64,000 nt of DNA from contig DASZRW010000059.1 of the NCBI GenBank assembly GCA_035549015.1, forward strand, positions 265-64,264. Reading direction: 5' to 3'. Below are positions 20,628 to 40,096 of the stretch, piece after piece (within the stretch, counting starts at the first letter, position 1; every line of letters begins with the position of its first letter). The notes beneath the pieces are model-generated. The model had not been told where the DNA came from. It saw only the letters and a list, made by a program, of their open reading frames with translations, and did not search any database. The position numbers and the translations under genes are program-made. This DNA is from Candidatus Kapaibacterium sp. GTDB taxonomy: Bacteria; Bacteroidota; Ignavibacteria; OLB7.

Positions 20628-21641
20628 TTATCCGATGCCGTAGTATCTCTGGAATGGAGCGTTGATGAACGGGAACTGGCCGGTTACATCCACGCTGCAA
20701 TACCACTGCTGCACAAGTCCGGTTTGCAGGCCGGTGAAGGAGAAGATCACGTCGAGCACCTTGTTCTTTCCCTGCACGGCGGAAGGGGCTGTGCGGATGC
20801 CGGTCAGTGAGTACGGCTCCTGTGTCGGGAGCTCCGATGTCGGCTGGCTCTGAGAAGGATATCGGAGGTTGTAGACCTGGGCATATGCCGATATGTATTG
20901 CAGCACGACATAGTTGATGGCGCGCTGCGGGTCCGTGTTGCCGGCATTGATCGCGAACCCGAACACCTGCGCGAAGATCGGCAGGACATTCTGCGGAGTG
21001 CCGTTCGTCAACTCGGTGATGGCACTCAGATAGCTCTGGCTGGAGGCGATGTATACCTCCTTCGCCGTCAGAACGGGAAGCCCGCCGCCGACGCGACCAT
21101 CGTCCGGAAGAGCCGTGCCTTCGGTTCCGCGAACGATGCCCCAGATCAACGAGCCCACGTCCGAAAGCGTGGGATCGTACAGCAACGCCACCAGATTCTG
21201 CAGCTCGTAGTTCGATTGCGGGTGGATCACATATACATCCGTGTTCCCCTGCTGAAACAGCCACGTCATTTCACGAGCGATGTACAGATTGTCCGTCTGT
21301 TTCAGATACCGTGCCACCAACCAGTCGATGTTCCTGTCCTGATCGGACTCGTCCAGTGTTTGAAGGAACTCCTTCTCGAGGCTGAGTGATGGAAACCGAG
21401 CAGCGATGCCGCCTACCGAGAAGACGTTCACCGCCGGAGCTGCGGCCTGCGCGCCGCTGCCGGCCGTAGCGTTCGCTGCGGAGGTGCAGGAGCAGTACGG
21501 TGCGATCTCGGATTGCATCGCGTAGTGTGTGATCGCGGTCATGCCGAGGCCTGCCTGCCACTCGCCTGCAAGGCCGCGCGCCGGTGTGCTGCCTGCAATC
21601 GTGCGAAGACTGCCTCCGGCCGTGAGTTGTGGTAGATTCAT
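20628..21641 (-). CDS. Hypothetical protein, paralog A of an unknown two-member family
   Basis: Shares CxC, LYIARE..W, A[IL]NY[VI][VI]L.Y and the C-terminal W[YF]C.VDVTGQFPF motifs with 22684..23718. The start is set at MNLPQL. The ORF-track N-terminal extension is Arg/Ser low complexity. Confidence 0.6.
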   Translation of the reverse strand: MNLPQLTAGGSLRTIAGSTPARGLAGEWQAGLGMTAITHYAMQSEIAPYCSCTSAANATAGSGAQAAAPAVNVFSVGGIAARFPSLSLEKEFLQTLDESDQDRNIDWLVARYLKQTDNLYIAREMTWLFQQGNTDVYVIHPQSNYELQNLVALLYDPTLSDVGSLIWGIVRGTEGTALPDDGRVGGGLPVLTAKEVYIASSQSYLSAITELTNGTPQNVLPIFAQVFGFAINAGNTDPQRAINYVVLQYISAYAQVYNLRYPSQSQPTSELPTQEPYSLTGIRTAPSAVQGKNKVLDVIFSFTGLQTGLVQQWYCSVDVTGQFPFINAPFQRYYGIG

Positions 21642-21786
21642 GATTCTCTCCTGTATCGAGCGTTGATGTCGAGTTACGTTGTCGCGGAACCTTGCTGGCT
21701 GCGCATCGCGGAAGCGCACGCGAAGGCGCGCCGGCCTCGGGGCCTTTCTCCTGAGCGCCTGCCGACGGGCATGAATGGCCCCAGCC

Positions 21787-22647
21787 CTATGCCTGCTTCT
21801 CGGATGGCACAGCCTGCTGCTGATTTGAATGGCGGTAGCGGCTTGGCGGCACGGATGATGTCTGCTTCGCGATCGCGTTCGCTGTGGGATCGGTGCTGAT
21901 GAAGATCGGCTCCTGCGGAAGCGTGGAGATGTACCACTGGGGTTGTGACTTCTGGGAGCCGTTGCCCAGCCTGCCGTTGCTTGTGCCCGAGTAGTCGTAG
22001 GCGTGGTCGCCATAGCCCTCGTTCGCCCGCCAGTTGTGGCGCAGTCGCGCGACAACCGTTCCCTCGGCCGTTCGGATCGTGAAGTTGCCGGAGAAGTCGA
22101 AGTAGTTCAGGCGGCTGAGATCCTCCTGCCGTATGATGCCCTGCCAGATGCGGACATATCCCAGCGAACCCCTGAAGTAGTTGGTGATGGTTGCGCAACT
22201 GCGGGTCTCCTTCCATGCGCCAAGGAGGGCAGGCCCCACGATGAACGGCTTGGACGTCGCAAGCGGCTTCGTCTCTCCGGGAACCGCGGCATTCACATAG
22301 AGCGTTGCAGCTGCCCCGTCCATCGTGATCGCGACATAGTACCAGGTGCCTGGGGTGAACGTCTCCGTGAACGTGAGCGTCGTTGGGCTGCCTCCATCCA
22401 CCGTCAGCTCGAGGTTGCTGCCGTTGAGCCCGATGCGGAAGCTTCCGGCGCCGCTTTCGCCGTCGTCGGCAAACAGCGACTGCTTTCCTTCGAGACGTTC
22501 GGCATAGAACCAGATCTCCACCGTGATCCTGTCGATCGCTTCGGCTTCCGGAATCTCCACGAGGCTCTTCTCGCCATCATAGCGGAGCACGGAAACTCCC
22601 AGCGGGGCATAGCGCGGAATTGTTATGGACATAGTCATCTCTCCCAT
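21787..22647 (-). CDS. Concanavalin-A-like / LamG-fold domain protein
   Basis: VEIWFYAERLEGKQSLFADDG...FRIGLNGSNLELTVDGG...GTWYYVAITMDG...TLYVNA resembles the LamG/jelly-roll lectin fold. Confidence 0.6.
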   Translation of the reverse strand: MGEMTMSITIPRYAPLGVSVLRYDGEKSLVEIPEAEAIDRITVEIWFYAERLEGKQSLFADDGESGAGSFRIGLNGSNLELTVDGGSPTTLTFTETFTPGTWYYVAITMDGAAATLYVNAAVPGETKPLATSKPFIVGPALLGAWKETRSCATITNYFRGSLGYVRIWQGIIRQEDLSRLNYFDFSGNFTIRTAEGTVVARLRHNWRANEGYGDHAYDYSGTSNGRLGNGSQKSQPQWYISTLPQEPIFISTDPTANAIAKQTSSVPPSRYRHSNQQQAVPSEKQA

Positions 22648-22683
22648 GTATTGAGTTCGTTATGCACGTGATGGTGTTGGCTG

Positions 22684-23718
22684 TTATGGATGTGGGTAGT
22701 ACCGGGCAAGCGGCCGTACCAGGAACGGGAACTGCCCGGTGACGTCCACCTTGCAGAACCAGTACACCGGCTCTCCCGTCTCGCGGTACTCGTAGTGGAA
22801 GATCACGTCCACGATCCTGCGTACGCCCTGTACGTTCGCGCCGTGCACGGAGACTTCCACCAGCGAGCAGGAGCGGTAGGGATCGATCGGTATGGCGCCG
22901 TCTGCGGCCGAGGACTGAACCGAGACAACGCCCCGGAGCATGTTCACCGCCATCTGATACAGATCCGGATAGCGCAGGATGATGTAGTTCAGTGCACGAT
23001 GCTCGTCGGTCTCGCCGGCGTTGTCGCCCAGATCGAGGAACTGCTCGAAGATGTACTTGGCCGTGGTGGTGTCGGTTCCCGTGCGCTCGGCGATTGCGGC
23101 TACGAATGCCGTCTCGGTGAAGCTGTAGATGTGATTGGCAACCACCAGCGGAAGCTGCAGTCCTGCGCAATAGTCCACCGGCGCGATCGGTCCGCGCGGG
23201 CCGATGATCACATCGAAGCGGCGGTCAGAGGTGCTGATCGGTTCCAGCCCGGAAACCATGTCGTACAGTTCCACATAGGAGCGCGGCTTTACGATGTAGG
23301 CGTCCACACTGGCGCCGGAGTTGGAGCCGTCGATCTGCAATACCCAGCAGACCTCGCGGGCGATATAGAGATACTGCCCCTGGCTCAGAACCTCGTACGG
23401 AAGCTCACCGTTGGGGAGCCAGTTGCGGAGCGAGGAGACGGCGAAACCGAATTCCTTGGAGAGTCCCGGTGTTGGCTCCACCGTCCGGAGCGATCCGATG
23501 GCATAGATGAATCCCGGTGCGGCCGGTGCCGCCTCCGCTGCTGCGCCATTGTTGCCGCCGCAGGCACAATCGTGCGGAACGATCGTTACCACTGGCTGCG
23601 CGGACTGTGCGATGGTTGCAAGCGATGTGGATGCCGGCGCCGCATGCGAAGGGGCAAGCACGGCCAGCGACTCCAACTGCGATGTTCCGGCCTCGTGCAG
23701 GACAGGTGTTTCTTCCAT
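22684..23718 (-). CDS. Hypothetical protein, paralog B of the unknown family
   Basis: Homologous to 20628..21641 across the whole length. C-terminus WFCKVDVTGQFPFLVRPLARYY. Confidence 0.6.
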   Translation of the reverse strand: MEETPVLHEAGTSQLESLAVLAPSHAAPASTSLATIAQSAQPVVTIVPHDCACGGNNGAAAEAAPAAPGFIYAIGSLRTVEPTPGLSKEFGFAVSSLRNWLPNGELPYEVLSQGQYLYIAREVCWVLQIDGSNSGASVDAYIVKPRSYVELYDMVSGLEPISTSDRRFDVIIGPRGPIAPVDYCAGLQLPLVVANHIYSFTETAFVAAIAERTGTDTTTAKYIFEQFLDLGDNAGETDEHRALNYIILRYPDLYQMAVNMLRGVVSVQSSAADGAIPIDPYRSCSLVEVSVHGANVQGVRRIVDVIFHYEYRETGEPVYWFCKVDVTGQFPFLVRPLARYYPHP

Positions 23719-23777
23719 GATGGTTATCCTCTCGGTCTAGGTGTATGTGTTGTTCCGCGCCGTGGGCGCAGGAGTGA

Positions 23778-24743
23778 TTACAGCGATTGCAGTGCCGCGA
23801 GGCTCGCGGCCGCGTTCAGCGTTGGCGGAACGATGCTGCGGCGGCGTATGCCGGGAATCAGCAGAGCCCGGCGTATCGTGGCGGCCGTTGCCGATGGCTT
23901 CACCGACCACAGAAGCGCCGCGGTTGCGGTTACGAAGGGAGCCGCCACGCTGGTGCCGCTCATCGTGGTGTACCCCTGTCCGGGAACCGTACTGAGCACG
24001 CCGGTGCCGGGTGCCGCAAGCCCGCGCCGTCCGATCCAGGCGCCGAGGTTGCTCTGGCGCAGGAGCGATCCGCCGGCGTCGCACGCCGCCACCGGCACCA
24101 GCCAGGGATGGTCGAACAGATCCGCCCGTCCGATTCGCCCGTGATTTCCCGCGGCAACAACGATCAGCACGCCGCTGCTGCGGGCGCGGTTGAAGGCGGC
24201 TGTGAGTGTCGGACTCTCTTCGATGGCGGTGCTGTTGGCGCCGAGGCTGAGGTTGATGATCGCGGCTCCTGCGTCGATCGTGTCGTGGAGCGCTTCGGCG
24301 AGATCGGTGGGACGGACGGCGGGACATTGGCGGGGATCGGGGGCTTCGCAGAAGATCGTTCGCACCAGCATCGTACAGCCGGGAGCGATCGCCGGGGCCT
24401 GCGATCCGCGTTGCGCGCCGATGATGCCCGCAACGAACGTTCCATGCATGCAGGCGAAACTGCTCGGTGCCGTACAACCCGCCGGTGTGGCGGTTCCAAC
24501 GGGCGATATCCTCGTCTCGCGCAGATCGGGATGTCCGGTGTCCACCGGGCCGTCGATGATGCCTACCACGATCTCCGGTCGCCCCTCGGTGAGCGATGTC
24601 AACGAATCCAGTGCAATGATGCCGGGTAACGACGCCATGATGTGTTCGCTTCCGTTTGCGCACGGCACGGCCATTGCGTGCAGCGCGCATGATTGAATGA
24701 TGTTGATGTTCGGGGGTTGGGATGGTGCCGACGGGGAATGCAC
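23778..24743 (-). CDS. Subtilisin-like serine peptidase (S8 family), apparently leaderless
   Basis: Catalytic Asp (VGIIDGPVD), His (HGTFVAGII) and Ser (GTSVAAP) motifs in the canonical order. No obvious signal peptide. ~300 aa. Confidence 0.85.
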   Translation of the reverse strand: MHSPSAPSQPPNINIIQSCALHAMAVPCANGSEHIMASLPGIIALDSLTSLTEGRPEIVVGIIDGPVDTGHPDLRETRISPVGTATPAGCTAPSSFACMHGTFVAGIIGAQRGSQAPAIAPGCTMLVRTIFCEAPDPRQCPAVRPTDLAEALHDTIDAGAAIINLSLGANSTAIEESPTLTAAFNRARSSGVLIVVAAGNHGRIGRADLFDHPWLVPVAACDAGGSLLRQSNLGAWIGRRGLAAPGTGVLSTVPGQGYTTMSGTSVAAPFVTATAALLWSVKPSATAATIRRALLIPGIRRRSIVPPTLNAAASLAALQSL

Positions 24744-24959
24744 CTCTGCTCAGCGTTGCCGGCCGGGGAAGCCGCGTCCGTTGAACGGCTGCAAAGTTCG
24801 GACCGATGCACCCGGCACGCGTTACTGAATTCGTACGTAGCCGTATGCACTCTGCATTCCCTTTCAGCGCATGCCGGCCCGGTATGCATGGCCGGCCGGC
24901 CGCTCCGGGCAGGCGCGGCGGGGAGGCGTGGACGAGTCAAGCGATGGTGGTATCAGATA

Positions 24960-26806: not shown

Positions 26807-27268
26807 ATGGATTCCCCATCCACACCGGCCGGCTCTGTTGCCCGGTCGGTTATCGATTTCAAGCTCCCGGTGGCGAAGAACCAGCAGGCGTTGGTGCTGG
26901 TTCGGTTCACCGGGACGTTGGCGAAGTGGGTCTCCGTGTACTTCCCGAACCGCATCAAGGTGGTGTCCAGTTGCGAAGCCGGCACCACCGCCGTGCCCAT
27001 CGTGCTGGACAATCACGGCGAGGAGCCGATGGATCTGCAGCTCGTGCCGGAATGCAGCGAGAAGGAGTGTCCCGATCAGAATCCCTCCGCGCAGCTGAAC
27101 GTGATTCTCCAGTACGAATCGTCCAGCCCGATGCGCCACTGGCTGCTCTCCGCATCGGAGATATCGGAATCCGATACGATCTCCATCACCATCATCGTGC
27201 AACCCGGCATCATCATCGACCCCGGAAGCGGAGATGCAGTACGTATTCCGGCCCGCACCATGCCGTGA
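26807..27268 (+). CDS. Small protein, paralogous family member (S2a)
   Basis: 153 aa. ATG preceded by a GGAG-like RBS. C-terminal ISITIIVQPGIII motif. Confidence 0.5.
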   Translation: MDSPSTPAGSVARSVIDFKLPVAKNQQALVLVRFTGTLAKWVSVYFPNRIKVVSSCEAGTTAVPIVLDNHGEEPMDLQLVPECSEKECPDQNPSAQLNVILQYESSSPMRHWLLSASEISESDTISITIIVQPGIIIDPGSGDAVRIPARTMP

Positions 27269-27357
27269 TTCGAACTCCACATGTCCGGGAACGGCACGGC
27301 AGCCGTTCCGCGCTCGATAAATTCAACCGAACCAACAATCGAATTCCGAGGTATCTC

Positions 27358-27765
27358 ATGCTGCAATCCGACAATCCAGCCTTCCCCGCTGCTCTGCCTG
27401 TTCCAACGTTCCCCATGGTAGGGACGTCGGACGCCAATCTGATCTGTCTTGTCCATGTCGCGTTTCTGGGGCCTACTGAAAAGGTCGTCACCTTCACTCT
27501 CGTCGGTCGCAGCGCCCCCTGGATCACCGTGAACTCCGGCGATGGTCCGTTCTGGAGCCGCATATTCCAGCCGAAGGACGGGCTGAGCCTGATAGGGGTG
27601 CCCGATGTGGCGAACTGCGCGTGGTGGTCGCCGCTCGGTGCCTGCGCCGGCAGCATATACTCCGCCTTCACCTACGGATATTCGCTCAACACCGGCATCG
27701 ATCAGGATGCCGTGCTGATCACCATTATCGTGCAGCCGGGAATCATCGCTCCCATTCCACTGTAG
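27358..27765 (+). CDS. Small protein, paralogous family member (S2b)
   Basis: 135 aa. C-terminal VLITIIVQPGIIAPIPL motif. Confidence 0.5.
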   Translation: MLQSDNPAFPAALPVPTFPMVGTSDANLICLVHVAFLGPTEKVVTFTLVGRSAPWITVNSGDGPFWSRIFQPKDGLSLIGVPDVANCAWWSPLGACAGSIYSAFTYGYSLNTGIDQDAVLITIIVQPGIIAPIPL

Positions 27766-27786
27766 CCGGCGCTCGATGGCGTCGTG

Positions 27787-30700
27787 TTACAGTGCGAACT
27801 CCATCCGGTACGCCAGTTGTGCCTGGATCTCGTTGCAGATCGCATGCAGGGAGATGATGTCCGGATGGGTTGCGCCCAGGTGCGCCTCGTGAATCGGAAT
27901 GGCCCGGCTGTAGATCTCGAACGCCTCGCCCAGACGTCCCTGCATGCGCAGCGCCCCGGCCAGGCGGGTAGCGCTGCCGGCCGTTTCCAATGCGTCCGCT
28001 CCGAACAGATCGCGGCGGATAACATACGCGCGCCGCAGCAGCTGCTCCCCCTCCTCCAGCTCGCCGCTGTCGCGCAGCATCATGCCGAAGCTGGTCAGGA
28101 AGAGAGCGGTCCTTGGATGCCGTGCGCCGAGAATCCGCTCGGCGCACGCAAGCGCATGCCGGTAGTGCACGGCTGCTGCGGAGGTATTGCCCATCTGTTG
28201 AAGCGCGAATCCCAGGTTCACCCGGTTCGATGCCGTCTCCAGATGTCCCTCTCCCAGCAGGCAGCCGTTCACCGCAAGGGCGCGTTCGAAGTACATGGCT
28301 GCCTCGGCGAAGTCCCCGCGAGCCACCCGCATCGCGCCGAGATTGTTCACGATCATCGCAACCGCAGCCTCGTCCGCGTCGTTGGCGAGGCAGAGCGCCT
28401 CCAGCAGGTGGATGTCCGCCTCCGCATGGTCCCCGCATGCATGGTACATCGCACCCAGCGCGGCCAGATTGCGTGCACGGTGCTTCGCATCCATTCCAGA
28501 CGCAGCTTCGCGCAGGCGCAGCGCGCGTTCGGAGACGCGGATCGCCCGCTCCCACTCTCCCGTGTGATAGAGCAGCGTTGCGTACGAATCCAGTGCCGGG
28601 AGCATCGTGGGGTTGTCCTCACCGTGAGCAGCGCCGCGCTCCTCCAGTGCCGTGCGGCACAGGTGCTCCGCCTCGGCGTAGTGCCCGGCGTGAAGCAGAA
28701 GGCCGGCAATGGCCTCGCGTGCTGCGACGAGATCCAGCGAAGGGTTCGCTTCCAGCTGGCAGGCCTGCATCGCAGTGCGATACGTTTCCACCATGCCGTA
28801 CCGATTCTCCAGCGCCCTCCAGTATTGCAGCAGTTCGTACGGGTCGCCGTCGGCAAGCAGCATCGATGCCGTCCGGATATCCGCGATGGCGGTGTGAAGC
28901 TTCCGCCATGCGCCGGCATGCATTGCCTGCCACGGTATCTCCTCCACGTGGCGGCGTGCAATGGGCTGGGATGCAAACCAGTCCGCGATCCGCTCGCGGA
29001 TCTCCGGGATGCGTCCGGGGCGTTCCACCAGATAGCGCCGCTCCACGGCTCTGCGGAATCCGTCGTGGTGGAAGCGGAACAGTCCCTCGTGGCCGATCAG
29101 ATGGCAGCCGAGCGACGCCAGCACCTCCTCCGTCTCCCCTTCGTCCAACAGGCCGATCGCCGCGATCTCCTGCCGCGCAAGGCCGCGGCGGGCCGCCCAT
29201 AGCAGGGTGAGCACCGTGCGCATCCGTGCCACGCCATGCCGGCCTTCCAGTTGTTCCAGTACGCGATCGAACAGCTCCGGCAGCGTCTCCGCCGCGAGAA
29301 GGCGATTCAGGAGAGCCGGTTCATCTGCGCCGGAAGCGGTTGCGTTCAGCCTCTCCAGTTGCGTTCTCAGATAGAGGGGGTTGCCTCCTGCCGTCCCCGC
29401 CCCGATGCGTGCGTACCAGTCGCCGTAGCGTGCCTCCCCGAACTCGCGAACGTATCGGGTTATCAGGTCGCGCCGTTGCTTCTGCGTAAGCTGCACCATG
29501 CGAAGCTCCGGCCAGGCTCGCGCGTGCAACGCCGCCAACGGTTCGGTATCGGTGGTGGAGACGATCAGCAGCACATGCGGCGGAATATGTTCAGGAAGCC
29601 AGGAGAGATCCCGGGAAGCTTCGTCGAGCTGATCGAGGCCGTCCACCACCAGCACCAGGTTCTCATGTTGAAGATGTCCCAGCCAGAGCGGAAACGCCTC
29701 ACGAATGCCGGCGGCATCCGTTGGGAGCGGATCGTCCACGCCGAGGCGTTCCCGTATCTCCGCCATGATGTGGCGCAGCACCGTGGCGCCGTCGTTGCCG
29801 GCGGATGCGGCCGCCACGTGATGCTGCACGATGAAGAGGTGGGGATGCTCGCTCCTGATCCGTTCGCACCAGTATGCCAGGAGTGCGCTCTTTCCCGCGC
29901 CCGATTCACCGGACACCACCAGCCCGGCATTGCGCTCCGGCTCGTCCCTCTCCGCAGCCGCCGTTCCGGGCTGGTTGTTCAGGAAATCGTCCAGGCGCTC
30001 CAGGTATCCCGGAATCTCCATGTAGGCATGCGTGCGCGAACGCGCGAACGATCGGTGCATCCGGCGCTCCGCATCGAGAGGCGAGCCGGTGGCAGCGGGA
30101 AAGAGGCGGTTGATCAGGTCCATCAGGTCGCGGCGAACGAGGTCGAGCAACTGCTCCCGCGTATGCACTGTGTGGTGCAGCGTCTGCCCGCTGGATCGGA
30201 TCATGTCCAGGATGCGCTCGCGTGCGGCGGCCGCAACGTTGCGCCGGCGCCGCGGCATCGCATCGTAGTACGACATTTCCTTCTCCGCCTGCGTACCGGA
30301 GACCGATGGAGGGGGTGCGGTGGCGTAGGCCTCCGGATGTTCCGGAGCCGGGTCATAGGGGAAGAACAACATCCTTCCGGCGAGCGCCGGGTTCCGGAGC
30401 GCGCCTGCGAGCGCCTCCATCGAAAGAAGGAACGGTGAGCCGGCAGTCCCTGCGCTGCGCCAGCGATACGGGTCGGTGCGGGCATCGCGGCCATCTGCGG
30501 CAGGGGGGCCCTCTACCGCCGGGTTGCTTCCAACGATCACCAGCACATAGATCCGCTGCCCGGTGTGCGCTGCAGGGGGGTGGTTGAAGATCGTCTCACC
30601 GTATGCCCCGGCTGTATCTGTGCCTGCAAGCTCGCACGTGGCGATATCTCCGCCGCGCGCGCGGCAGATGCCGCTCAGCTCCGGCAGCAGCGCCTGAGCC

Positions 30701-30804
30701 AGCCATGCTCGTTCCGCATCGATATCGCACTGTATGCCGACGATCGCGATCCGGATCAACGGGAACGCATCGTGCGGCGATGGTGCCGAGGGCTCGCAAC
30801 TCAT
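27787..30804 (-). CDS. STAND NTPase (NB-ARC-like) with C-terminal TPR repeats (paralog 2)
   Basis: Walker A GESGAGKSAL, Walker B LVLVVDGLDQLDE, IVSTTD and GGNPLYL motifs, and a TPR_12-like C-terminal array. The start is inferred at MSCEPSAP. Confidence 0.85.
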   Translation of the reverse strand: MSCEPSAPSPHDAFPLIRIAIVGIQCDIDAERAWLAQALLPELSGICRARGGDIATCELAGTDTAGAYGETIFNHPPAAHTGQRIYVLVIVGSNPAVEGPPAADGRDARTDPYRWRSAGTAGSPFLLSMEALAGALRNPALAGRMLFFPYDPAPEHPEAYATAPPPSVSGTQAEKEMSYYDAMPRRRRNVAAAARERILDMIRSSGQTLHHTVHTREQLLDLVRRDLMDLINRLFPAATGSPLDAERRMHRSFARSRTHAYMEIPGYLERLDDFLNNQPGTAAAERDEPERNAGLVVSGESGAGKSALLAYWCERIRSEHPHLFIVQHHVAAASAGNDGATVLRHIMAEIRERLGVDDPLPTDAAGIREAFPLWLGHLQHENLVLVVDGLDQLDEASRDLSWLPEHIPPHVLLIVSTTDTEPLAALHARAWPELRMVQLTQKQRRDLITRYVREFGEARYGDWYARIGAGTAGGNPLYLRTQLERLNATASGADEPALLNRLLAAETLPELFDRVLEQLEGRHGVARMRTVLTLLWAARRGLARQEIAAIGLLDEGETEEVLASLGCHLIGHEGLFRFHHDGFRRAVERRYLVERPGRIPEIRERIADWFASQPIARRHVEEIPWQAMHAGAWRKLHTAIADIRTASMLLADGDPYELLQYWRALENRYGMVETYRTAMQACQLEANPSLDLVAAREAIAGLLLHAGHYAEAEHLCRTALEERGAAHGEDNPTMLPALDSYATLLYHTGEWERAIRVSERALRLREAASGMDAKHRARNLAALGAMYHACGDHAEADIHLLEALCLANDADEAAVAMIVNNLGAMRVARGDFAEAAMYFERALAVNGCLLGEGHLETASNRVNLGFALQQMGNTSAAAVHYRHALACAERILGARHPRTALFLTSFGMMLRDSGELEEGEQLLRRAYVIRRDLFGADALETAGSATRLAGALRMQGRLGEAFEIYSRAIPIHEAHLGATHPDIISLHAICNEIQAQLAYRMEFAL

Positions 30805-30887
30805 TGCCGGTTCCGAAAGAATGGTTGACACGAACTGCTGCAATCGCATGCGGCGGCCTGGCCCATGCGGTTGCCGGACATATCGCG

Positions 30888-30962
30888 TGCAGGGGAGTGT
30901 GCAGGCGTTGTGGGATCACGAGAGGGATGCAAAAGTAGCAGGGAATGCGCTTCATGTCAAAC
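30888..30962 (-). promoter_or_regulatory. Conserved promoter plus leader element upstream of STAND paralog 2
   Basis: On the minus strand: TTGACA, 17 nt, then TACTTTTG (a Bacteroidota-type -7 TAnnTTTG), followed by a conserved leader. It is ~85% identical over ~65-75 bp to 38793..38867. Confidence 0.45.
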
Positions 30963-31003
30963 GGGCCGGGTAATGCCTCAACGGCAATTCCCGGCCCGTT
31001 CCT
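30963..31003 (-). terminator. Putative intrinsic terminator hairpin after the 82-aa gene
   Basis: Perfect 11-bp stem AACGGGCCGGG / CCCGGCCCGTT with a 20-nt loop immediately downstream of 31038..31286. A comparable GGGCCGG/CCGGCCC hairpin follows copy 1 near 19515-19560. Confidence 0.4.
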
Positions 31004-31037
31004 GTTGTGGTGCAGTTTCGCTGCGACAATGAGAATA

Positions 31038-31286
31038 CTACTTGAAGTCGCTGGTCTTGCCCGAGTGGGTGCACTGTACTCCGGGGAACTCATAGGTCTT
31101 GCCATCGCCATCGAACACACCGCTGATGTTGTAGTGGTGCCCCACCGTTGGAAGGTCTCCGGCGCTGAATGGGCCGGCGGAGAATACTCCGAACTCGGAA
31201 TATGTTCCCGTGCCGTCCGTCAGGTCGCCAGATCCCTGAATCGAACGAACAATGACGCGTGTGTAGTGACCGACAGGATTCGCCAT
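31038..31286 (-). CDS. 82-aa conserved small protein (copy 2)
   Basis: Paralog of 19604..19852 with the same length and ~75% amino-acid identity. It sits upstream of STAND paralog 2. Confidence 0.6.
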   Translation of the reverse strand: MANPVGHYTRVIVRSIQGSGDLTDGTGTYSEFGVFSAGPFSAGDLPTVGHHYNISGVFDGDGKTYEFPGVQCTHSGKTSDFK

Positions 31287-31584
31287 GTCTTGATTCTCCT
31301 CTGATTGAAGGTGATAGATATCGGTAGCGCCCTCGGCGGCAAGTGGCCGTTGCCACTTCAGGCGCTACGTGCGAAACGGCTGCGTTGCGATGGCTGCATC
31401 CCTCCGGATGTATCGCGACGAGACGATTGCTCGTAACGCGAGTACGTGGATTCGAGGTGCGCCCGGTCGCTCAGTTCCGTTTCGCGATTCCGTAACGGCA
31501 TGCCGGGAGGAGGTTGCTCCAACCGCCCCTCCGCCCGGCGATGCCACTGCTGCCACTCGTTGAGGTCGATGCGAGTTGCGGCTG

Positions 31585-32217
31585 CTACGATTGAACGAAC
31601 GTTCCGGAAGCGCTGTTGAACTTGAGAGAGACGCTTGTGACCGTGCCACCGAACGTCACCTTGGTATAACTGGTATTGATCTGAGAGATCATCGTCTCGC
31701 TTGCGAAGTTTGCCTGCAGCCACACATAGACAACCGTGAACGGTGTGAGCGTGTCGTAGGCCTGGCTCAATACCATGTCGGCGTTCAAGGCATTGAATCC
31801 GCCCGGAACGCCGTTGATGATGGCCGGCTGCGTAAGTCCGAACGTGAGCGCCCGGTACTTGCTTGCCGGCATGGCGTTATCGATGCGATAGCTGGTGAGC
31901 GGAACGTCGGATGTGGCGACGCCCTGGGAAAAGATTGCGTTGGGCAGGAAGGTGTACGTTGATCCGCCTTCGGCCGGCGAGAATGTGCTGAGCTTGGAGA
32001 TCGTGGCGCCATGCTCCACGGTGCTCGTTGCCGCGTAGATGCCGTACTGCTCCGTCCACGATACGGTGTTGTTCTCGAACGGATCGAAGCTCTGCCAGAT
32101 CACGTTGGGCGCGGCGCCTCCCACCGGCTTCGCGAGCGTGATGTTCATGCCGGCAGCGCTGATAACGGCCAGTTCGGTCGGGTCGATCTGCAGTGAAAGT
32201 TCATAGTTGTTAGCCAT
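31585..32217 (-). CDS. Hypothetical protein (210 aa)
   Basis: ORF with GC3 bias. The start is set at MANNYELSLQIDP. No recognisable motifs. Confidence 0.45.
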   Translation of the reverse strand: MANNYELSLQIDPTELAVISAAGMNITLAKPVGGAAPNVIWQSFDPFENNTVSWTEQYGIYAATSTVEHGATISKLSTFSPAEGGSTYTFLPNAIFSQGVATSDVPLTSYRIDNAMPASKYRALTFGLTQPAIINGVPGGFNALNADMVLSQAYDTLTPFTVVYVWLQANFASETMISQINTSYTKVTFGGTVTSVSLKFNSASGTFVQS

Positions 32218-32828
32218 GTCGCTTGTTCCTGAGTTGATTGATACGTGAAGAGTGATTGCTCCGGCCGATCGTGAGCGCCTGCATGCGCCGCTGTGCACAC
32301 GGCTGCATCAAGCCTCGGAGTGCGCGGCCACGCGAGATGTTGAGGCGCGGCTGCATGTGTCACGATCGGCCTTGCGGTTGTGTTGTCCGTCATGACGTTC
32401 ATGCAAAGGTCGCTGCACCGTGCGGCCGCAGATCTACTGAGGTATTACCGAGTTTATTCGCCCCACGCCGGGCCCTTGCTCTGCATGCGCTGCAGGGCGA
32501 ACGCGCGCAATCGGGCGCAGTCTGCGGGAAGTTCAAGGGGGTGCGGCCACGCAGCCCGTTTCGTGCAGGGGATTGAAGTCGGCGTCGACATCCGGCTGGC
32601 GCATCTTCGGTACTGAACTTCTACCGAGGCGGCGCCGTTCATGAGCCGACGGCGCGAAGGAATTGCGCGGCTGCGATGCGGAACGCACGGCCCGGCAGGC
32701 GGAAAGCCGCGGCCGTGTATGGCAGGCAGGGAGCAGTGATGCGGCGGAGATCGACTGCCGGGCAGGCGGCCGTCCACCCGGGAATGAGAGGGGAGAGAGT
32801 GATGATGATTCGAGCACCCGGCCGTGGA

Positions 32829-34511
32829 CTAGAGCGAGGCGAGGAAGGTAGTGAGGCTCACCTTCGAGTCCAGGCGAAGTTTGCGGCGGATGTTGTACTT
32901 GTGCGAGTCCACCGTGCGAACGGAGGTGCAGAGAATTGCGGCGACATCCTTGGTGGAGAGATTGATGCGGGCAAGCGAGCAGATCTTCAACTCCGTCGGC
33001 GTCAGCAGCGGGCAGCGCTCCGAAAGGAGCCGGATGAAGTCCTGATGGAGATGATCGAGCTGCTGCTCGAATATCTTCCAGTCCGCATCGGCATGCTTCG
33101 TGCTGGTGATCTCGCTGATCATCCGTTCAACCGTATCGGTGCCGGAGCGGCGGCTCTCGCCGTGCAGCTTCTCGAGTTGATACTGCATGTCGGCGAGCAG
33201 TTCCTTCTTCTGCAGAAGGTTTACCGCCATGGCCGTGAGCTCGTTCTGCTTCAGTCGCATCTCGGCGCGGAGCCCTTCAACCTGCAGGCGATACATTTCC
33301 CGCTCGCGCTCCGCCTTCTCCAGATCGAACCGAACCTGCAGTTCGGCGATTGCATGCTGCTTCTCGCGACCGGCCAGTTCGTTCCGGAGTTCCGCGAAAT
33401 GGCGATAGTGTTCGAATGCCCATTCAATCTGTCCAAGGTGGTGATAGGCATGCGAGATGGCGCCGTGCACCTCGTACTGAAGACGCCGATCGTCGATCGC
33501 GCGCGCCAGTGCCAGCGCCTGATCCAGCACGAAGACGGCGTCGTCCATCGCGCCGAGTGCGGTGTGCAGGCGCCCCATGTCCAGCAGAAGCTCCACGCGC
33601 CGCGTGTCGTCGGGCGACTGGCCCAGCAGCGAGTAGGCGCGCATTGTGAGGCCCAGCGCGGCATCGTACTCATGCCGTGCCGCATGAACGCGTCCCAGCA
33701 TCGCCAGCACGGTCCCCACATTCTGCAGGTCCCCCAGCGTCTCGTAGATCGTGAGCGCCCGAAGTCCGTGTTCGGCTGCGCTCTCGCCGTTGCCGGTGGC
33801 GAGATCTATTTCGGCGAGATGCCGCAGTGCGTCCACTTCACGGAGACGATTCCCGGATTCCCGGAACACCTCGGCGCTTCGGCGCAGATATTCGCGGGCG
33901 GTCGTGTGGTCGTTCGTGCGTCCGTACAGGATGCCGACCGCGGCCAGGGCATGCCCCACACCGTCGTGTACATCGCTCGATTCATACAGCCGGAGAGCGT
34001 CCAGATAATATCCGAGCGCCTTCGGGTAGTCGCCGATGCTCATTCTCAGATCGCCGATGGAGAGTGCCGCCGCGGCCTGGAGGTCCGATGCCCCGGCATG
34101 CATTGCCCGTTCGAGTGCCGTATGCAGCCAGTCGATCGCATGCGGGGCCATGCCGGCGGCGAGGTGCGCCCGGCCTGCCTGCAGTGCGCAGACGGCGGCT
34201 TCCGAGTCGTGGCCAAGATCCACATTGATGCAGTACGCCTCCACAAGGTCGGCAGCCCCCGCATCGTGATTTCCGAGAACAACGTATGCCTCGCCGCGAC
34301 GGCGCAGAATGCGTGCAGCTGCCGCCATGTTGCGCGACGAGGCGGCGAGGCGATACCCCTCGCTCGCCAGGCCGACACTGTACGGCGCGGCGCCGGCCGC
34401 GGCCTCGTCGAGAAATTCCAGAATCAGATCGAGCTTCCGATTCCGATCCTGCGCCATCAACAGCCGGCGTTCGATCGCCTCGATAATTCGTTCCTGGTCT
34501 GCTGTCCCCAT
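32829..34511 (-). CDS. TPR-repeat transcriptional regulator with C-terminal LuxR-type HTH (paralog 3)
   Basis: Same architecture. The C-terminal 200 aa are nearly identical to paralog 1. The start is inferred at MGTADQERIIEAIERR (561 aa), which matches the paralog lengths. The ORF-track 5' extension overlaps the opposite-strand genes. Confidence 0.85.
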   Translation of the reverse strand: MGTADQERIIEAIERRLLMAQDRNRKLDLILEFLDEAAAGAAPYSVGLASEGYRLAASSRNMAAAARILRRRGEAYVVLGNHDAGAADLVEAYCINVDLGHDSEAAVCALQAGRAHLAAGMAPHAIDWLHTALERAMHAGASDLQAAAALSIGDLRMSIGDYPKALGYYLDALRLYESSDVHDGVGHALAAVGILYGRTNDHTTAREYLRRSAEVFRESGNRLREVDALRHLAEIDLATGNGESAAEHGLRALTIYETLGDLQNVGTVLAMLGRVHAARHEYDAALGLTMRAYSLLGQSPDDTRRVELLLDMGRLHTALGAMDDAVFVLDQALALARAIDDRRLQYEVHGAISHAYHHLGQIEWAFEHYRHFAELRNELAGREKQHAIAELQVRFDLEKAEREREMYRLQVEGLRAEMRLKQNELTAMAVNLLQKKELLADMQYQLEKLHGESRRSGTDTVERMISEITSTKHADADWKIFEQQLDHLHQDFIRLLSERCPLLTPTELKICSLARINLSTKDVAAILCTSVRTVDSHKYNIRRKLRLDSKVSLTTFLASL

Positions 34512-34727
34512 GATCCGTTGCCATAACGATGAAAGAATACATCCGGCACGAACGCGCGGTGCGGAGTGCGGCGGTGTTCGTCTGCGCCGCCGGTCAACTC
34601 GGTAATTCCTCAGTAGTGCGGAAGCCCGTCCATCTCGATACCATTGCACCAACCAACACCGGGCCGTGCAACGCAGCGGCCCGCCAACATCAGCCGGCAT
34701 GTTTGCCGCAACCAGGAGGATCTCATC

Positions 34728-35150
34728 ATGACAGGTGCAGGTATCGTCACCATCGAGGAACTCGAAGCGATCACATCCATTCCGATCACCGAATTCCTTC
34801 CGGACTCCTACTGCCAGATCGTAGTCGAGTCCACGTTGAACGAGACCGTCGTGGTTTCGATCGTTGATGCCAAACTCATCGCAGTCGAAGGCGACAAGCT
34901 GGCCGGCGGGGAATCGTATACAACGCGCATCTCCGGCGAGGATATGTCGCTCCAGCCCTACACGCTGAACATCCTCTCGCGAACCGCGATGATTCATACC
35001 TGCAAGACCGGCTACTACACACTCCCGGACGACGAGACGAATTATCAGATCGAACTGTGCCGCATGGTGCCGTTTCCCGACACGACAACGGACGGGCAGA
35101 TCAACATCACGATCATCCTCCAGCCCACGGACATCCTCACGGAGCCGTAG
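34728..35150 (+). CDS. Small protein, paralogous family member (S3a)
   Basis: 140 aa. AGGAGG RBS before the ATG. C-terminal INITIILQPTDIL motif. Confidence 0.5.
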   Translation: MTGAGIVTIEELEAITSIPITEFLPDSYCQIVVESTLNETVVVSIVDAKLIAVEGDKLAGGESYTTRISGEDMSLQPYTLNILSRTAMIHTCKTGYYTLPDDETNYQIELCRMVPFPDTTTDGQINITIILQPTDILTEP

Positions 35151-35229
35151 CTGGTTTCCCGGGAAGTGCATTCAGGCTGCGGTTGCGGGTTCGTGCAGCA
35201 TGCGCGGTCAACATTCAACGAGAGAAACA

Positions 35230-35658
35230 ATGGCGGAACACTGGCATGCTCGTCATGGAGGACCCATTCGTGTACCGGTATTTCCCGTAATCGATCCCGG
35301 CGTCGGACTCTATGTGGTTATTCATATCGTGTTCAACGGGTCCGGGCTGAAGAGGGTGACATTCACACGCCCGGGAGAAACGATGCCGTGGCTTGTGGCG
35401 GAATTGCCGGGGACCGGTTTCTGGAATCATGTATACCGTCATCAGGATGGCATCAGCCGCCTTGCGATATCCGGAATGGACTCGATGCCGGATTGGACGT
35501 TCCTCGGCCAGAAGAAAATGACGAGCGACGGCGTCGTCTCCGCGTACACGTGCCAGTATCTCCTTGCGGAGAGCCCGCATGAGTCCGTGCTCGTCACCAT
35601 TCTTCAACTGCCCGGATCGCCGGGCGGAGCTGCTGAAGCGCCGCGCCGTGTAGTGTGA
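35230..35658 (+). CDS. Small protein, paralogous family member (S3b)
   Basis: 142 aa. C-terminal VLVTILQLPGSPG motif. Confidence 0.5.
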   Translation: MAEHWHARHGGPIRVPVFPVIDPGVGLYVVIHIVFNGSGLKRVTFTRPGETMPWLVAELPGTGFWNHVYRHQDGISRLAISGMDSMPDWTFLGQKKMTSDGVVSAYTCQYLLAESPHESVLVTILQLPGSPGGAAEAPRRVV

Positions 35659-35795
35659 TGCTTCCGACGGAGTATGCACCGGGCCATGCCGCCCACGATG
35701 CCGATCGAATCACGACGGAAGGTGTCGTGGGCGGCATGCACAATAGCTTCCTTCCATGTTTTCGTGTCGATCGGATCATGCGGCCGGCAGCGCGT

Positions 35796-38747
35796 TCACT
35801 GCTGCTCGGCGCGCTCTTCGATTTCATCCATGATTCTGAATATCTGGATTATCTCCGGATGGTCGCCTCCAAGCACCGGCTCCTGCACCACGATCGCCTC
35901 CCTGTACAGCGCCAGCGCCTCGCCGTACCGTTCCTGCCGGCAGAGCGCACCGGCCAGGCGTGTCATGCTGGTTGCCGTTTCGATCGCATCCGGACCGAAC
36001 GTCTCGCGGCGAATATCTGCGGCGCGCATCAGCAGATCCGTTGCCTCGTCAAGCTGGCTGGTCTCCCGCAACAACATGCCGAGGTTGGTGAGGAAGAGCG
36101 CAACGTGGGGATGCTGCGAGCCAAGTACGCGTTCGGCGATGCCGAGTGCCTCGCGATACTGCGCAGTTGCGGCGGCAGTGTTGCCGGTGCGCTGCAGCGC
36201 GAAGCCAATGTTCACCAGATTCGACGCCACCTCCAGATGTTCGGCGCCCAGCAGCCGCCGGTTCAACTGCAATGCATGTTCGAAGAAGCGGGCCGCCTCC
36301 TCGAAGTGGCCAAGGGTTGCCCGAAGCGCGCCGAGATTGTTGGCGGCGAGGGCCAGGATTGTGTCGTCCGTATCGTTGGCAATGGTGAGGGCGCGCATCA
36401 GATAATCCTCGGCGTCGTCGTAGGCATGCATGGCATGGCACACGGCTCCGAGATCGGCGAGGTTCTTCGCGATCTCCGGGCCGGTGATGCCGTCTCCCGT
36501 CTCGCGAACGGCCAGTGCGCGGCGCGATATCTCGATCGCCTCGGTGTAGCGTCCGGTGTGGTACAGCAATGCTGCGAGCGAGTCCAGCGTCCCCAGGGAG
36601 TCGCGCCAATCGGGCCGGCCGGCCGTGTGGTGCACGGAGAGTGCGCTGCGGCAGAATCGTTCGGCGGCCTCGTATTCTCCGGCCTGCACGAAGAACTCCG
36701 CCATCGTACGAAGCGCGGCAACCAGCGCGCGTGGCGAGGTGTCCGCCTGCCGGTATCGCTCCATGGCAGTGAAGTATGCCTGCGCCATCTCACCACGATT
36801 CCCCACAACCAGCCAGTAGTGGAGGAGCTGGTAGGGATCGTTATCCTTCAGCAATTCCATCGCAAGCGGGATATCCGTGATCGCGGCGCGCAGCTCCTCC
36901 ACCTCACCGATGGCGGCGAGCTGCCACGGCAACTCCTCTGCGCGGCGGGGCGTCTCCTGCTCGGAGCCGAAGTAGCCGGCGATGCGCCAGCGCACGCGTT
37001 TCAACTCATCGCGACGCCCGAACAGATATCGCCGGTCCACGGCCCGGCGCATGTGGTCGTGATAGTAGGTCAGCAGCCCCTCGCGCTCCATGAGATGATA
37101 GTTCAGTGCCTGCACGATCGCGGCAAGCTCCTCGCGTTCGATGCCGCTGGCTCCGGCCAGTTCCGTTTCCGAGAGTCCGCGCCGCGATGCAAGAATCAAC
37201 GTCAGCACCGTGCGGAGATTCTCCCGGCCGAAACGTTCCTCCAGCCGCACAAGCACGCGTTCGAACAACTCGGGGAGATCGCGTGCCGTGAGGTAGTAGT
37301 CGATGTGCTCGTTCAGTTCCGCGGCCGATCCGCCGCGGCCGCTCTCCTCCAACTGTGTTCGCAGATGCAGCGGGTTTCCTCCCGTGCTCGGCAGGCTGAT
37401 GCGATCCAGTTGCGCAAGGTTGTGGCGCCTGCCGAACTCCGCAGCGTACCGGTGCGCGAGATCGCGGCGCTGCTCGAGCGTGAGCGGTTGAACGTGCAAC
37501 TCCTCCCACTCGCGCTCGCGCAATACTTCCAGCGCGTGCGACTCCGTGGTGGAGACGATCACCGTTACACGGGGCGGTATGTAGAGCGGCAGCCATGCCA
37601 GATCCTGCGACTCCGGTTGAAGCTGGTCCAGCCCGTCGATGATCAGCACCAGATTCTCGTTCTGCACGTGGCCAAGCCAGAGCGGCAACGCCTTCTCGAT
37701 CTCCGCGCCGTCTGCAGGCACGGCATCGGCAAGTGCGTAGCGTTCGCGCAGCTCCATCATCACATGGCGCAGCAGTGGAACATGGTCGCTTCCGGACGAT
37801 GTGATGGCAACGTGGTGGAGAACGATGAACGCCTCACGACGTTCGTGTTGCAGCCTGCCGGTCCAGTATGCCAGGAGGGCGCTCTTGCCGCAGCCGGAGG
37901 GGCCCGCAACAACCAGCCCCGTTCTGCCGGAACGTTGCTCTGCGGATCTCCGGCGGTTCTCCGTCCTGCCGAACGCGAATTGCTCCAGCCGTTCCAGATA
38001 TTCCGGAATCTCCACATATGCCCGCGTGCGCGAGAGGGCGAACGCCTCATGCGCCCGTCGTTCCAGCGCAAGCGGCGTGAGCGTTCTGCAGGCTGGGAGG
38101 AGCCTGTCGATGACGGCTTCGAGATCAGCGCGGATATGGGCAACGAGTTCGTCGCGGCTCTCGATCCCGTCGCGCAGCGGATGCCGGCTGGAACGAATCA
38201 GCATCGCCGCTTCTTCGGCGGCGCGCAGCGCATGTTCCGCCGCGCGGGTCTCCGGCTCGATCCCCCCATGCCGTGCCGGCATGTAGAAGAACAGCCTGCC
38301 GACGGTTGCGGTATTGGAAAGGACGTACGGCAGCAGCGACGCGGGCACAACGCCCGCACCGCCGCCGGATGCGCGTTGCCACGGAAAGCGCCTGCTCGTC
38401 TCACCGTTCGATCCGGTTTGCAACCCGGCACTGTCCGTCCCGACGATTGCAATCACATATGCATGCCTGGCCGCCACCTCATCGAGCTGGCGCTGCAGCA
38501 ATGCCTCGGACTGTGCCGCCTCCGTTCCCGCTCCGGTGTCGGCGGCGAATTTCATCTCGGCGAAGTCGCCCCCGCGTGCCCGGCAGATATCCCGCAGTTC
38601 ATCGAAGAGATGCATCGAGAGATGCGCACGCTCCGCGGTCACATCCCCAAGGACTCCGATTACGGCAACACGCAGACGATTCGATTGATCGAGCGGGGAT
38701 GGCTCCAATGGTATACCACTCAACTCCAGCTCCTTACGGCTTGGCAT
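35796..38747 (-). CDS. STAND NTPase (NB-ARC-like) with C-terminal TPR repeats (paralog 3)
   Basis: Walker A GPSGCGKSAL, Walker B LVLIIDGLDQLQPE, IVSTTE and GGNPLHL motifs, and a TPR_12-like C-terminus. Confidence 0.85.
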   Translation of the reverse strand: MPSRKELELSGIPLEPSPLDQSNRLRVAVIGVLGDVTAERAHLSMHLFDELRDICRARGGDFAEMKFAADTGAGTEAAQSEALLQRQLDEVAARHAYVIAIVGTDSAGLQTGSNGETSRRFPWQRASGGGAGVVPASLLPYVLSNTATVGRLFFYMPARHGGIEPETRAAEHALRAAEEAAMLIRSSRHPLRDGIESRDELVAHIRADLEAVIDRLLPACRTLTPLALERRAHEAFALSRTRAYVEIPEYLERLEQFAFGRTENRRRSAEQRSGRTGLVVAGPSGCGKSALLAYWTGRLQHERREAFIVLHHVAITSSGSDHVPLLRHVMMELRERYALADAVPADGAEIEKALPLWLGHVQNENLVLIIDGLDQLQPESQDLAWLPLYIPPRVTVIVSTTESHALEVLREREWEELHVQPLTLEQRRDLAHRYAAEFGRRHNLAQLDRISLPSTGGNPLHLRTQLEESGRGGSAAELNEHIDYYLTARDLPELFERVLVRLEERFGRENLRTVLTLILASRRGLSETELAGASGIEREELAAIVQALNYHLMEREGLLTYYHDHMRRAVDRRYLFGRRDELKRVRWRIAGYFGSEQETPRRAEELPWQLAAIGEVEELRAAITDIPLAMELLKDNDPYQLLHYWLVVGNRGEMAQAYFTAMERYRQADTSPRALVAALRTMAEFFVQAGEYEAAERFCRSALSVHHTAGRPDWRDSLGTLDSLAALLYHTGRYTEAIEISRRALAVRETGDGITGPEIAKNLADLGAVCHAMHAYDDAEDYLMRALTIANDTDDTILALAANNLGALRATLGHFEEAARFFEHALQLNRRLLGAEHLEVASNLVNIGFALQRTGNTAAATAQYREALGIAERVLGSQHPHVALFLTNLGMLLRETSQLDEATDLLMRAADIRRETFGPDAIETATSMTRLAGALCRQERYGEALALYREAIVVQEPVLGGDHPEIIQIFRIMDEIEERAEQQ

Positions 38748-38792
38748 GATGTGCCGTCAACAACAGGCGGTTGGCGGCCTCGCATGCAGGGG

Positions 38793-38867
38793 GCTGCAGG
38801 CGTTGTGGGAGAATGAGAGGACTGCAAAAGTAGCAGGGAATACGGTGGATGTCAACAATGCCGCATT
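38793..38867 (-). promoter_or_regulatory. Conserved promoter plus leader element upstream of STAND paralog 3
   Basis: Same TTGACA, 17 nt, TACTTTTG arrangement and a conserved downstream leader, as at 30888..30962. Confidence 0.45.
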
Positions 38868-38934
38868 GAACGCAACGCCGCGAGCGGGCTATATTGGGCC
38901 CGCTCCGGTCGGTTGTCCCTACATGTACATTCCC

Positions 38935-39354
38935 ATGGCCATGCGCACAATGCACTTCCCGTTCATCCTCGCGTCCGTTCTTCTTGCAACCTCGGCTCCG
39001 CTTGTCTCGTGCAACGGCACGAAGGCGCCCGATGCGAAGCAGCCTGCACAGACCCCCTCTCCGGTGCAGACCCCGCCGCCTGCCGAAACGCACCAGGCGC
39101 GATCGCCGGAGATGATGCCCAGCTTCGACGAGACGGTGTTGCGCGAGTATGCGCGCCGTGCCGTGGCGATACCGAAGCGCATCACCGACAGCATCATCAA
39201 GGCGCAGGGAAAGAACATCGCGGCCGTGCAGACCGAACTGAGCAGATACCTGAAGCGCCAGGATTCGATTGCGAGGATCAGCCTCTCGAAGCAGTTCAAC
39301 ATTCCGCTCGATTCGATCAACGCAATCATCAACCGCAAGAACAACGCCGAGTAG
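38935..39354 (+). CDS. Putative lipoprotein (139 aa)
   Basis: MAMRTMHFPFILASVLLATSAPLVSC signal with lipobox. Pro/Gln/Thr-rich linker. Confidence 0.5.
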   Translation: MAMRTMHFPFILASVLLATSAPLVSCNGTKAPDAKQPAQTPSPVQTPPPAETHQARSPEMMPSFDETVLREYARRAVAIPKRITDSIIKAQGKNIAAVQTELSRYLKRQDSIARISLSKQFNIPLDSINAIINRKNNAE

Positions 39355-39410
39355 CGCATGCGGAACCGCGGCCGCGATCGGCATTCACACTGAACAGCTA
39401 CACATTTCGT

Positions 39411-39881
39411 ATGACAGCAGAGGACGTTCGTGGACGTTTCTCGTGGCTCGAGTATACCGAGCGAGCCACGGCGAAGATGATGGAGATGATTCCCGAGGAT
39501 GCATGGGATTTCCGTCCGGCGGAGGGATGCCGTACCGTCGGCGAGCTTGCGGCGCATCTCTACGGCGCGGAGCGGGCCACACTGCTTGGCCTGGAGCGCG
39601 GCTCGATGACGCAGGAGGAATACAGTCGCGATCAGGGGCCGGCGATTGCGGCGCGCAAAGATGTTCATGATCTGATGGAGAGCGCACGCCAGGCGCGTGC
39701 CCGGGTGCTGGAGTCGTTGACCGACGAGAGCCTGAACGTGCCGATCAAGCTCTTCTACGGCGAGTTCACGGCCGCTCAGGTGATCGGCTTCGTCTACGAC
39801 GAGCACTGGCATCATCGCGGGCAGCTCACGGTCTATCTCCGCGCGCTCGGCCTCGAGCCGCCGTTCATCTACGGAGAGTAG
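39411..39881 (+). CDS. DinB/YfiT-like (DinB_2) family protein
   Basis: Four-helix-bundle signature with His-rich metal site residues (HLYGAE...HWHHRGQL). Confidence 0.7.
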   Translation: MTAEDVRGRFSWLEYTERATAKMMEMIPEDAWDFRPAEGCRTVGELAAHLYGAERATLLGLERGSMTQEEYSRDQGPAIAARKDVHDLMESARQARARVLESLTDESLNVPIKLFYGEFTAAQVIGFVYDEHWHHRGQLTVYLRALGLEPPFIYGE

Positions 39882-40096
39882 GAGGGGCGGCGGCGCTGCG
39901 AAACGTGTGCAGGATGGTTCGGTACGGTGGCTTCGGATATCGCATCGGCAACTCCCGGCTCGTGTCACATCCGGTAGTGGAGCATAGGAGCACCGCGAAG
40001 GAACGCATGGGCCTGCGCCTTCCGTGAAGCCGGTAACAGGCGGGCCGCGCCGAACTGCATGTCCGGCGCGGCCCGCATGATGTTCAGCGGGGAGGG

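Follow-up and report, generated by a model that had tools for sequence, protein, structure and literature searches.

The 64-kb stretch of DNA analysed here (the window) has a GC content of 63% and includes three related modules, all on the minus strand. Each module comprises a gene for a STAND NTPase of about 1000 amino acids (NACHT/AAA_16 plus TPR) and, about 1 kb downstream, a gene for a TPR-LuxR protein with a GerE helix-turn-helix (HTH). The proteins of STAND paralogs 2 and 3 are 45% identical, and those of paralogs 1 and 2 are 36% identical. Modules 2 and 3 have their STAND and LuxR genes split by two small opposite-strand genes without Pfam matches. A further STAND gene from the same sample, paralog 5 (P0002), encodes a 38%-identical protein with DUF4062, AAA_16 and TPR Pfam domains, and has an orthologue in the MAG SZAS-92 (JAFDZV01), the closest genome available (loci L066 and L067 for the sample and SZAS-92). 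The paralog-5 module includes one such small gene, and the recurrence of these genes across modules suggests that they belong to the STAND/LuxR module. PADLOC returned generic TPR matches only. Coordinates are collected in Table 1.

Table 1. Features of the STAND modules and of the conserved upstream islands, in window positions
Feature	Position	Strand	Remarks
STAND paralog 1	15924-19013	-	
Candidate degenerate promoter, STAND paralog 1	18949-18990	-	GGTACA-N16-TAAGTTCG; tentative
Opposite-strand gene pairs, 135-153 aa	26807-27268, 27358-27765, 34728-35150, 35230-35658	+	
STAND paralog 2	27787-30849	-	NACHT/AAA_16 + TPR, 1020 aa; NCBI start 6 codons later
Island copy A	30883-30960	-	Upstream of STAND paralog 2; core promoter plus conserved ~47 nt past the -7 box
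Inverted repeat / RNA hairpin, copy A	30884-30907	-	CGCCTGCA-(8 nt)-TGCACGCG; stem invariant
-7 box, copy A	30930-30937	-	TACTTTTG
-35/-33 box, copy A	30955-30960	-	TTGACA; a T before it gives TTTG
GC-rich hairpin with 18-bp arms	30960-31000	-	Downstream of the 82-aa ORF, before the copy A -35 box
STAND paralog 3	35796-38747	-	NACHT + TPR, 983 aa
Island copy B	38780-38855	-	Upstream of STAND paralog 3; ~188-nt divergent intergenic region
Inverted repeat / hairpin, copy B	38781-38802	-	CGCCTGCAG-(4 nt)-CTGCATGCG
-7 box, copy B	38825-38832	-	TACTTTTG
-35/-33 box, copy B	38850-38855	-	TTGACA
Promoter-like sequence	38866-38895	+	TTGAAC-N18-TATATT; divergent lipoprotein gene (ATG 38935); upstream bound of copy B
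Leader segment CCTCTC-to-CCCACAACG			Part of the conserved leader

A RiPP-like gene set lies between STAND modules 1 and 2 (about 19850-24750, minus strand) and includes an S8 peptidase, two PatG_D/PatG_C proteins, a LamG-domain protein and several ORFs of 70-100 amino acids, one of which (19962-20258) has a Cys-rich C-terminus (...CILKCGAAALGCVLCGPNPACWLLCAGPAAFTCIKECL). Downstream of the paralog-5 STAND and TPR-LuxR module are two phage-tail Collar-domain (PF07484) proteins instead of a PatG cluster. A fourth large AAA_16 NTPase (1117 amino acids; 43712-47065, minus strand), in which no TPR or NACHT Pfam match was detected, has a one-mismatch -7-like box (TACATTCG, beginning at 47091) directly upstream.

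A conserved island is found upstream of STAND paralogs 2 and 3. Its two copies are identical in 64 of 78 aligned columns, with one 2-nt gap, and an ungapped core (30900-30960 vs 38795-38855; family D15 of a repeat search) is 85% identical over 61 nt. The sequence-only reading had reported about 85% identity between 30888-30962 and 38793-38867; the similarity stands, and the second interval was placed about 10 nt off. The counterpart of 30888-30962 is approximately 38785-38857, and 38793-38867 still covers most of the element. Both copies read TTGACA, 17 nt, TACTTTTG, GCA-NN-CCTCTC-NNNN-TCCCACAACGCCTG, a short variable stretch and CCCCTGCA-Y-GCGA. TTGACA and TAnnTT together occur only at these two sites in 64 kb (0.08 expected for TTGACA-N15-19-TANNTT), as does an 18-nt sub-pattern (0.07 expected). 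The match is far above chance; the identity runs of 19 and 14 nt are by themselves not improbable at 18% divergence.

The 80-nt flanks of the island are only 33% identical upstream and 45% identical downstream, and the 3.4-kb alignment of the two modules averages 54%. The best five 60-nt windows of that alignment all fall in the island, and the best coding window (29990-30049) reaches 80%. Homology begins exactly at the -35 hexamer. The island is collinear with the gene, at 80 nt from the ATG for paralog 2 and 77 nt for paralog 3. The GC-rich hairpin that abuts copy A, likely a terminator, marks where the homology ends on its 5' side. Extending the STAND coding sequence at the N-terminus was rejected, since a stop codon lies in frame 9 nt before the paralog-3 ATG. 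On the opposite strand, a public gene call (38746-39354, 201 amino acids) overlaps the island at copy B; ATG 38935 is the more likely start of this gene, whose product would then have a lipoprotein signal peptide (MAMRTMHFPFILASVLLATSAPLVSC). Next to it comes a DinB-domain gene (about 39408-39881).

The first part of the island resembles a Bacteroidota-type -33/-7 promoter, as had been proposed from the sequence, and the proposal is borne out by an exact TAnnTTTG box and the arrangement TTG-N20-TA in both copies. The published consensus is TTG-N17-23-TAnnTTTG, and the RpoD proteins of Chlorobi and Bacteroidetes form one cluster (bioRxiv 10.1101/172254; PMC9723704). TTG-N20-TA is also present in paralog 5, and its spacing fits the published 17-23 nt. 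By E. coli sigma-70 criteria the -35 hexamer matches at 6/6 positions, the -10 hexamer TACTTT matches TATAAT at 3/6 (threshold 4/6, with 16-18 nt to the -35), and a consensus scan reports neither site; the sites are better explained by the Bacteroidota reading. Upstream of paralog 5 and of its SZAS-92 orthologue, 107 nt before the ATG, is GGTTGACA-N17-TACCTTTGCA (GTTGACA-N17-TACCTTTGCA), with both boxes conserved and three spacer positions different. The host's primary sigma factor presumably belongs to the Bacteroidota/Chlorobi RpoD clade, judging from taxonomy only (Candidatus Kapabacteria).

The number of TAnnTTTG boxes in the window (five) equals that expected by chance. All five are located 24-97 nt upstream of a plausible start codon of a long, high-GC3 ORF and in the same orientation. 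In an orientation-aware test, which counts a match lying from -150 to +80 of an ORF 5' boundary on the same strand, TAnnTTTG scored 5/5 versus 18/217 (8.3%) for 29 permuted control motifs. Without the two sites under test, the remaining three give P = 5.7e-4. The sample behind the box as a promoter mark in this host is 64 kb plus a few loci. The box also precedes rpsT in SZAS-92. In silico, the reading as a Bacteroidota-type sigma-A promoter is thus well supported, and at least three STAND paralogs share it. Another perfect TAnnTTTG promoter (TAACTTTG, 60460-60565, minus strand) has an unusually long leader (about 97 nt) with a hairpin-like GCACGCACAGGTGCGGTGC.

The island agrees with the sigma-A promoters of Bacteroides fragilis and Flavobacterium in its exact -7 box, the TTG 20 nt upstream, the absence of a Shine-Dalgarno sequence before the ATG, and the restriction of the motif to gene 5' ends in the window. 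It differs in that the host is a 63% GC Kapabacteria MAG rather than a member of Bacteroidia or Flavobacteriia, the perfect box precedes only about one in ten window genes, and the start site here is a predicted one. A full, E. coli-like TTGACA as the -33 element also sets it apart from the window's other TAnnTTTG promoters. The RpoD motif of Chlorobaculum tepidum (dRNA-seq, bioRxiv 10.1101/172254) comes from a related lineage and likewise combines a TTG -35-like element with a TA-initiated -7 box. However, that box is TA[ATC][ATC][AT]T without a TTTG tail, whereas the island boxes have the full Bacteroidota form.

The second part of the island is the conserved leader, which the sequence-only reading had correctly noted after the -7 box. 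It runs in both copies from CCTCTC through the TCCCACAACGCCTGCA block to a second hairpin arm, TGCAYGCGA. Only paralogs 2 and 3 have this 3' half (CCTCTC-N4-TCCCACAACGCCTGCA-loop-TGCAYGCGA). What paralog 5 has in common with the island is limited to the -35 and -7 boxes, the latter with its GCA, and a CGCCTG roughly 20 nt beyond. Conservation also extends into the promoter spacer, where paralogs 2 and 3 share all 9 nt adjoining the -7 box (ATTCCCTGC) and SZAS-92 differs at one. Because this spacer is conserved although it is untranscribed, its sequence points to some DNA-level constraint on the island.

Searches for the leader elsewhere were largely unproductive. An nhmmer profile of the island matched only the SZAS-92 orthologue among 62 STAND-homologue loci (GTDB species genomes, source MAG not included). 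A metagenome scan for CCTCTC-N4-TCCCACAACGCCTG gave one match, which falls within coding sequence on an unrelated contig of 46% GC and is therefore regarded as chance. In the rest of the window, the blocks ATTCCCTGCTAC, TCCCACAACGCCTG and CCCCTGCAYGCGA, with mismatches allowed, have scattered matches that are never combined and never upstream of a STAND or LuxR gene. The earlier statement that no equivalent element precedes paralog 1 is upheld, as local alignment gave scores no higher than those of shuffled sequences and a search with a five-sequence promoter profile found no match there. A degenerate promoter is tentatively proposed for this gene (Table 1). Its 42-nt block is 100% identical in SZAS-92, and the spacers of paralogs 1 and 5 match, again tentatively, at 12/13 positions.

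The syntenic DNA of SZAS-92 is 85-91% identical to that of the window. This MAG has the paralog-3 orthologue (86% amino acid identity) and lacks the paralog-2 segment. The paralog-3 island is identical at 74/76 positions between the window and SZAS-92, versus 69.9% of the fourfold degenerate sites in the paralog-3 gene pair (n = 499; binomial P = 9e-10). The interval 38600-38990 as a whole is 90-97% identical to SZAS-92, and the island is among the top few percent of windows without being unique. Its identity, set against the 70% at fourfold sites, indicates that the island is under purifying selection, and the possibility raised at the outset, that the similarity is only a decaying remnant of the duplication, does not agree with an island above the fourfold rate in this one related genome. 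The evidence for constraint comprises two independent copies and one close orthologue, too few for site-by-site resolution. Protein searches found no paralog-2 orthologue and a paralog-3 orthologue in SZAS-92 only, so deeper footprinting is impossible; for paralogs 2 and 3 themselves, 45% protein identity implies that synonymous sites should be saturated.

Two paralogous 82-aa ORFs (19604-19852 and 31038-31286, minus strand) have no Pfam match, and each is followed by a GC-rich hairpin. Their first 156 nt counted from the stop codon (19604-19759 vs 31038-31193) are 79% identical. The entire segment of about 11.7 kb between them, with STAND2, LuxR2 and the PatG cluster, is missing from SZAS-92, a pattern suggestive of its deletion or insertion through recombination between the copies of the 82-aa ORF.

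We assign a probability of about 0.7 to the explanation that the island combines a sigma-A core promoter with the initial ~50 nt of the 5' leader, kept by selection since the STAND duplication. The promoter would be of the Bacteroidota/Chlorobi style TTG-N20-TAnnTTTG, here also TTGACA-N17. The element would have come with the gene at the ancestral STAND duplication, and purifying selection would have held it nearly unchanged while both sides, including the first ~20 codons, decayed. In Flavobacterium the -7 box spans -12 to -5 (PMC9723704). From this position relative to the start, transcription is predicted to begin about 5 nt past the -7 box, at or near CCTCTC, which would give a leader of 70-95 nt. 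The ATTCCCTGC spacer and the leader segment might then provide common control of paralogs 2 and 3, and paralogs 1 and 5 would be without it. The control could be a DNA-level repressor operator that overlaps the promoter and early transcribed region. Such an operator is favoured because conservation lies partly in the untranscribed spacer and because the promoter is a rare perfect consensus; a 5'-UTR hairpin that acts on mRNA stability or translation would be a near-equal alternative.

A competing explanation for the island is a plain promoter without further function, of which about 78 nt were copied between the paralogs by recent gene conversion or partial duplication. There are just two island copies, their 18% divergence is of the same order as that between the window and SZAS-92, and the paralog-2 module is missing from SZAS-92, all of which would fit a recent event. 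However, the flanks are non-homologous in DNA (33-45%), which leaves no substrate for homologous conversion, so conversion limited to these 78 nt is unlikely. Also, the island is collinear with the gene and equally far from both ATGs, conservation of the paralog-3 copy between genomes far exceeds the neutral rate, and the -35 and -7 boxes are retained in a 38%-identical paralog as well. This explanation as a whole is therefore considered improbable. A somewhat lower standing is given to the idea, also suggested from the sequence, that the leader is an operator for the neighbouring TPR-LuxR proteins, by which the modules would regulate their own STAND genes. It draws on the TPR-LuxR gene about 1 kb downstream of each STAND gene, an inverted repeat in the leader (TGCA-N-TGCA within CGCCTGCA...TGCAYGCG), three CCTGC(A/T) repeats there, and the conservation that is partly in untranscribed spacer DNA. 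However, the HTH recognition helices of the three LuxR paralogs are almost identical and thus cannot single out a partner. A shared site would be expected, yet the promoters of paralogs 1 and 5 are without the motif, and its blocks recur neither in combination elsewhere in the window nor in the intergenic regions examined upstream of LuxR genes and 82-aa ORFs. The spacing of the dyad half-sites differs by 2 nt between copies, which is awkward for a rigid dimer, and the opposite-strand genes between STAND and LuxR show that the two are not one operon. No observed feature ties the leader to LuxR, and this part of the earlier proposal is not supported.

The leader RNA can form a hairpin of 7-9 bp (CGCCUGCA-loop-UGCAYGCG), so perhaps the segment functions in the 5' UTR, either as a hairpin for stability or translation or through a single-stranded C/U-rich 5' end (CCUCUC...UCCCACAA) that is the target of an sRNA, as the sequence-only reading had suggested, or of an RNA-binding protein. 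We regard this as a doubtful reading, albeit one with substance. The hairpin is possible in all three sequences, differences between copies are confined to the loop or an internal mismatch, and the 2-nt indel shortens the loop and adds a pair. Bacteroidota are without Shine-Dalgarno-led initiation, and mRNA structure tunes their translation (PMC6847099); structured 5' regions are also common in Flavobacterium (PMC9723704). However, 0/16 pairs covary and the alifold covariation term is unfavourable, folding energies are not beyond those of shuffled sequences (z = -0.9, +0.4 and -1.8 for the window copies, none significant), and the covariance models of Rfam 15 found no match at E<=1 in 27000-40000 on either strand. 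No conserved fold was found in the paralog-5 leaders, and an RNA role leaves the conserved untranscribed spacer unexplained. A transcription attenuator or riboswitch, the former suggested initially, would be in keeping with a 70-95-nt leader and a conserved hairpin. It is very improbable, since no U-tract follows the hairpin (the next nucleotides are AUAUGUCC in copy A and GGCCGCC in copy B), a terminator scan found no terminator-like site in either leader, there is no alternative pairing, and the fold statistics and Rfam result are as above. A leader peptide was also considered and rejected, as the sole shared reading frame starts from a TTG inside the -7 box and shifts after 11 codons, with substitutions that are not synonymous-biased. 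The least credible alternative is a phase-variable (invertible) promoter or site-specific recombination site, as in Bacteroides. Invertible promoters of Bacteroidales are reported to carry TAnnTTTG boxes, and paralog 2 has a 10-nt inverted repeat (TTGACATGAA / TTCGTGTCAA) around the promoter and leader. However, this repeat flanks only copy A and not that of paralog 3, the ON orientation is found in all three copies, that of SZAS-92 included, and the boundaries of the SZAS-92 deletion are at the 82-aa ORFs and not at the island.

Thus, the island is a real, selectively maintained control region of an ordinary kind. Its leader part is private to paralogs 2 and 3, and would act as an operator or a 5'-UTR element. 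A more specific proposal, which we consider tentative, is that leader and spacer constitute a lineage-specific cis-regulatory module, either a repressor operator or an RNA-protein or sRNA target, that serves as a common switch for the two modules. If so, two of at least five STAND-NTPase/TPR-LuxR sensor modules would be under one switch, atop an unusually strong consensus promoter, and paralogous STAND sensors flanking RiPP-like and tail-collar-protein gene sets would have a dedicated regulatory tier.

MalT and other LAL-type regulators likewise couple a LuxR-type HTH in function to a STAND NTPase whose sensor repeats are TPR-like. The STAND proteins of the window match the MalT-like TPR Pfam family, below its curated cut-off. 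In contrast to MalT, the window encodes NTPase and HTH as two proteins, their genes lying about 1 kb apart with genes on the opposite strand in between, and no shared site resembling a MalT box is apparent. Another point of comparison is the set of structured 5' leaders in Flavobacterium psychrophilum (PMC9723704). The island leader likewise exceeds the median length, has a potential hairpin and precedes a non-Shine-Dalgarno start. However, it lacks covariation, significant folding energy and a known family, and its conservation reaches untranscribed DNA.

The island is otherwise an ordinary promoter plus leader that overturns no expectation and opens no long-standing question. In silico, it supports the use of the Bacteroidota -33/-7 promoter grammar (TTG-N20-TAnnTTTG) by high-GC Kapabacteria, a group on which a limited literature search found no promoter study. 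It is also a clean case of phylogenetic footprinting between old paralogs and defines a precise 78-bp fragment for reporter or binding assays on an uncharacterised DUF4062-like/NACHT/TPR STAND family that is paired with TPR-LuxR regulators. Some of the closest STAND homologues (35-39% identity) are from MAGs labelled 'uncultured Alphaproteobacteria' (L004, L005 and L012). In L005 and L012 TAnnTTTG boxes precede the STAND gene, and in L004 there are none. The taxonomic labels may be wrong.
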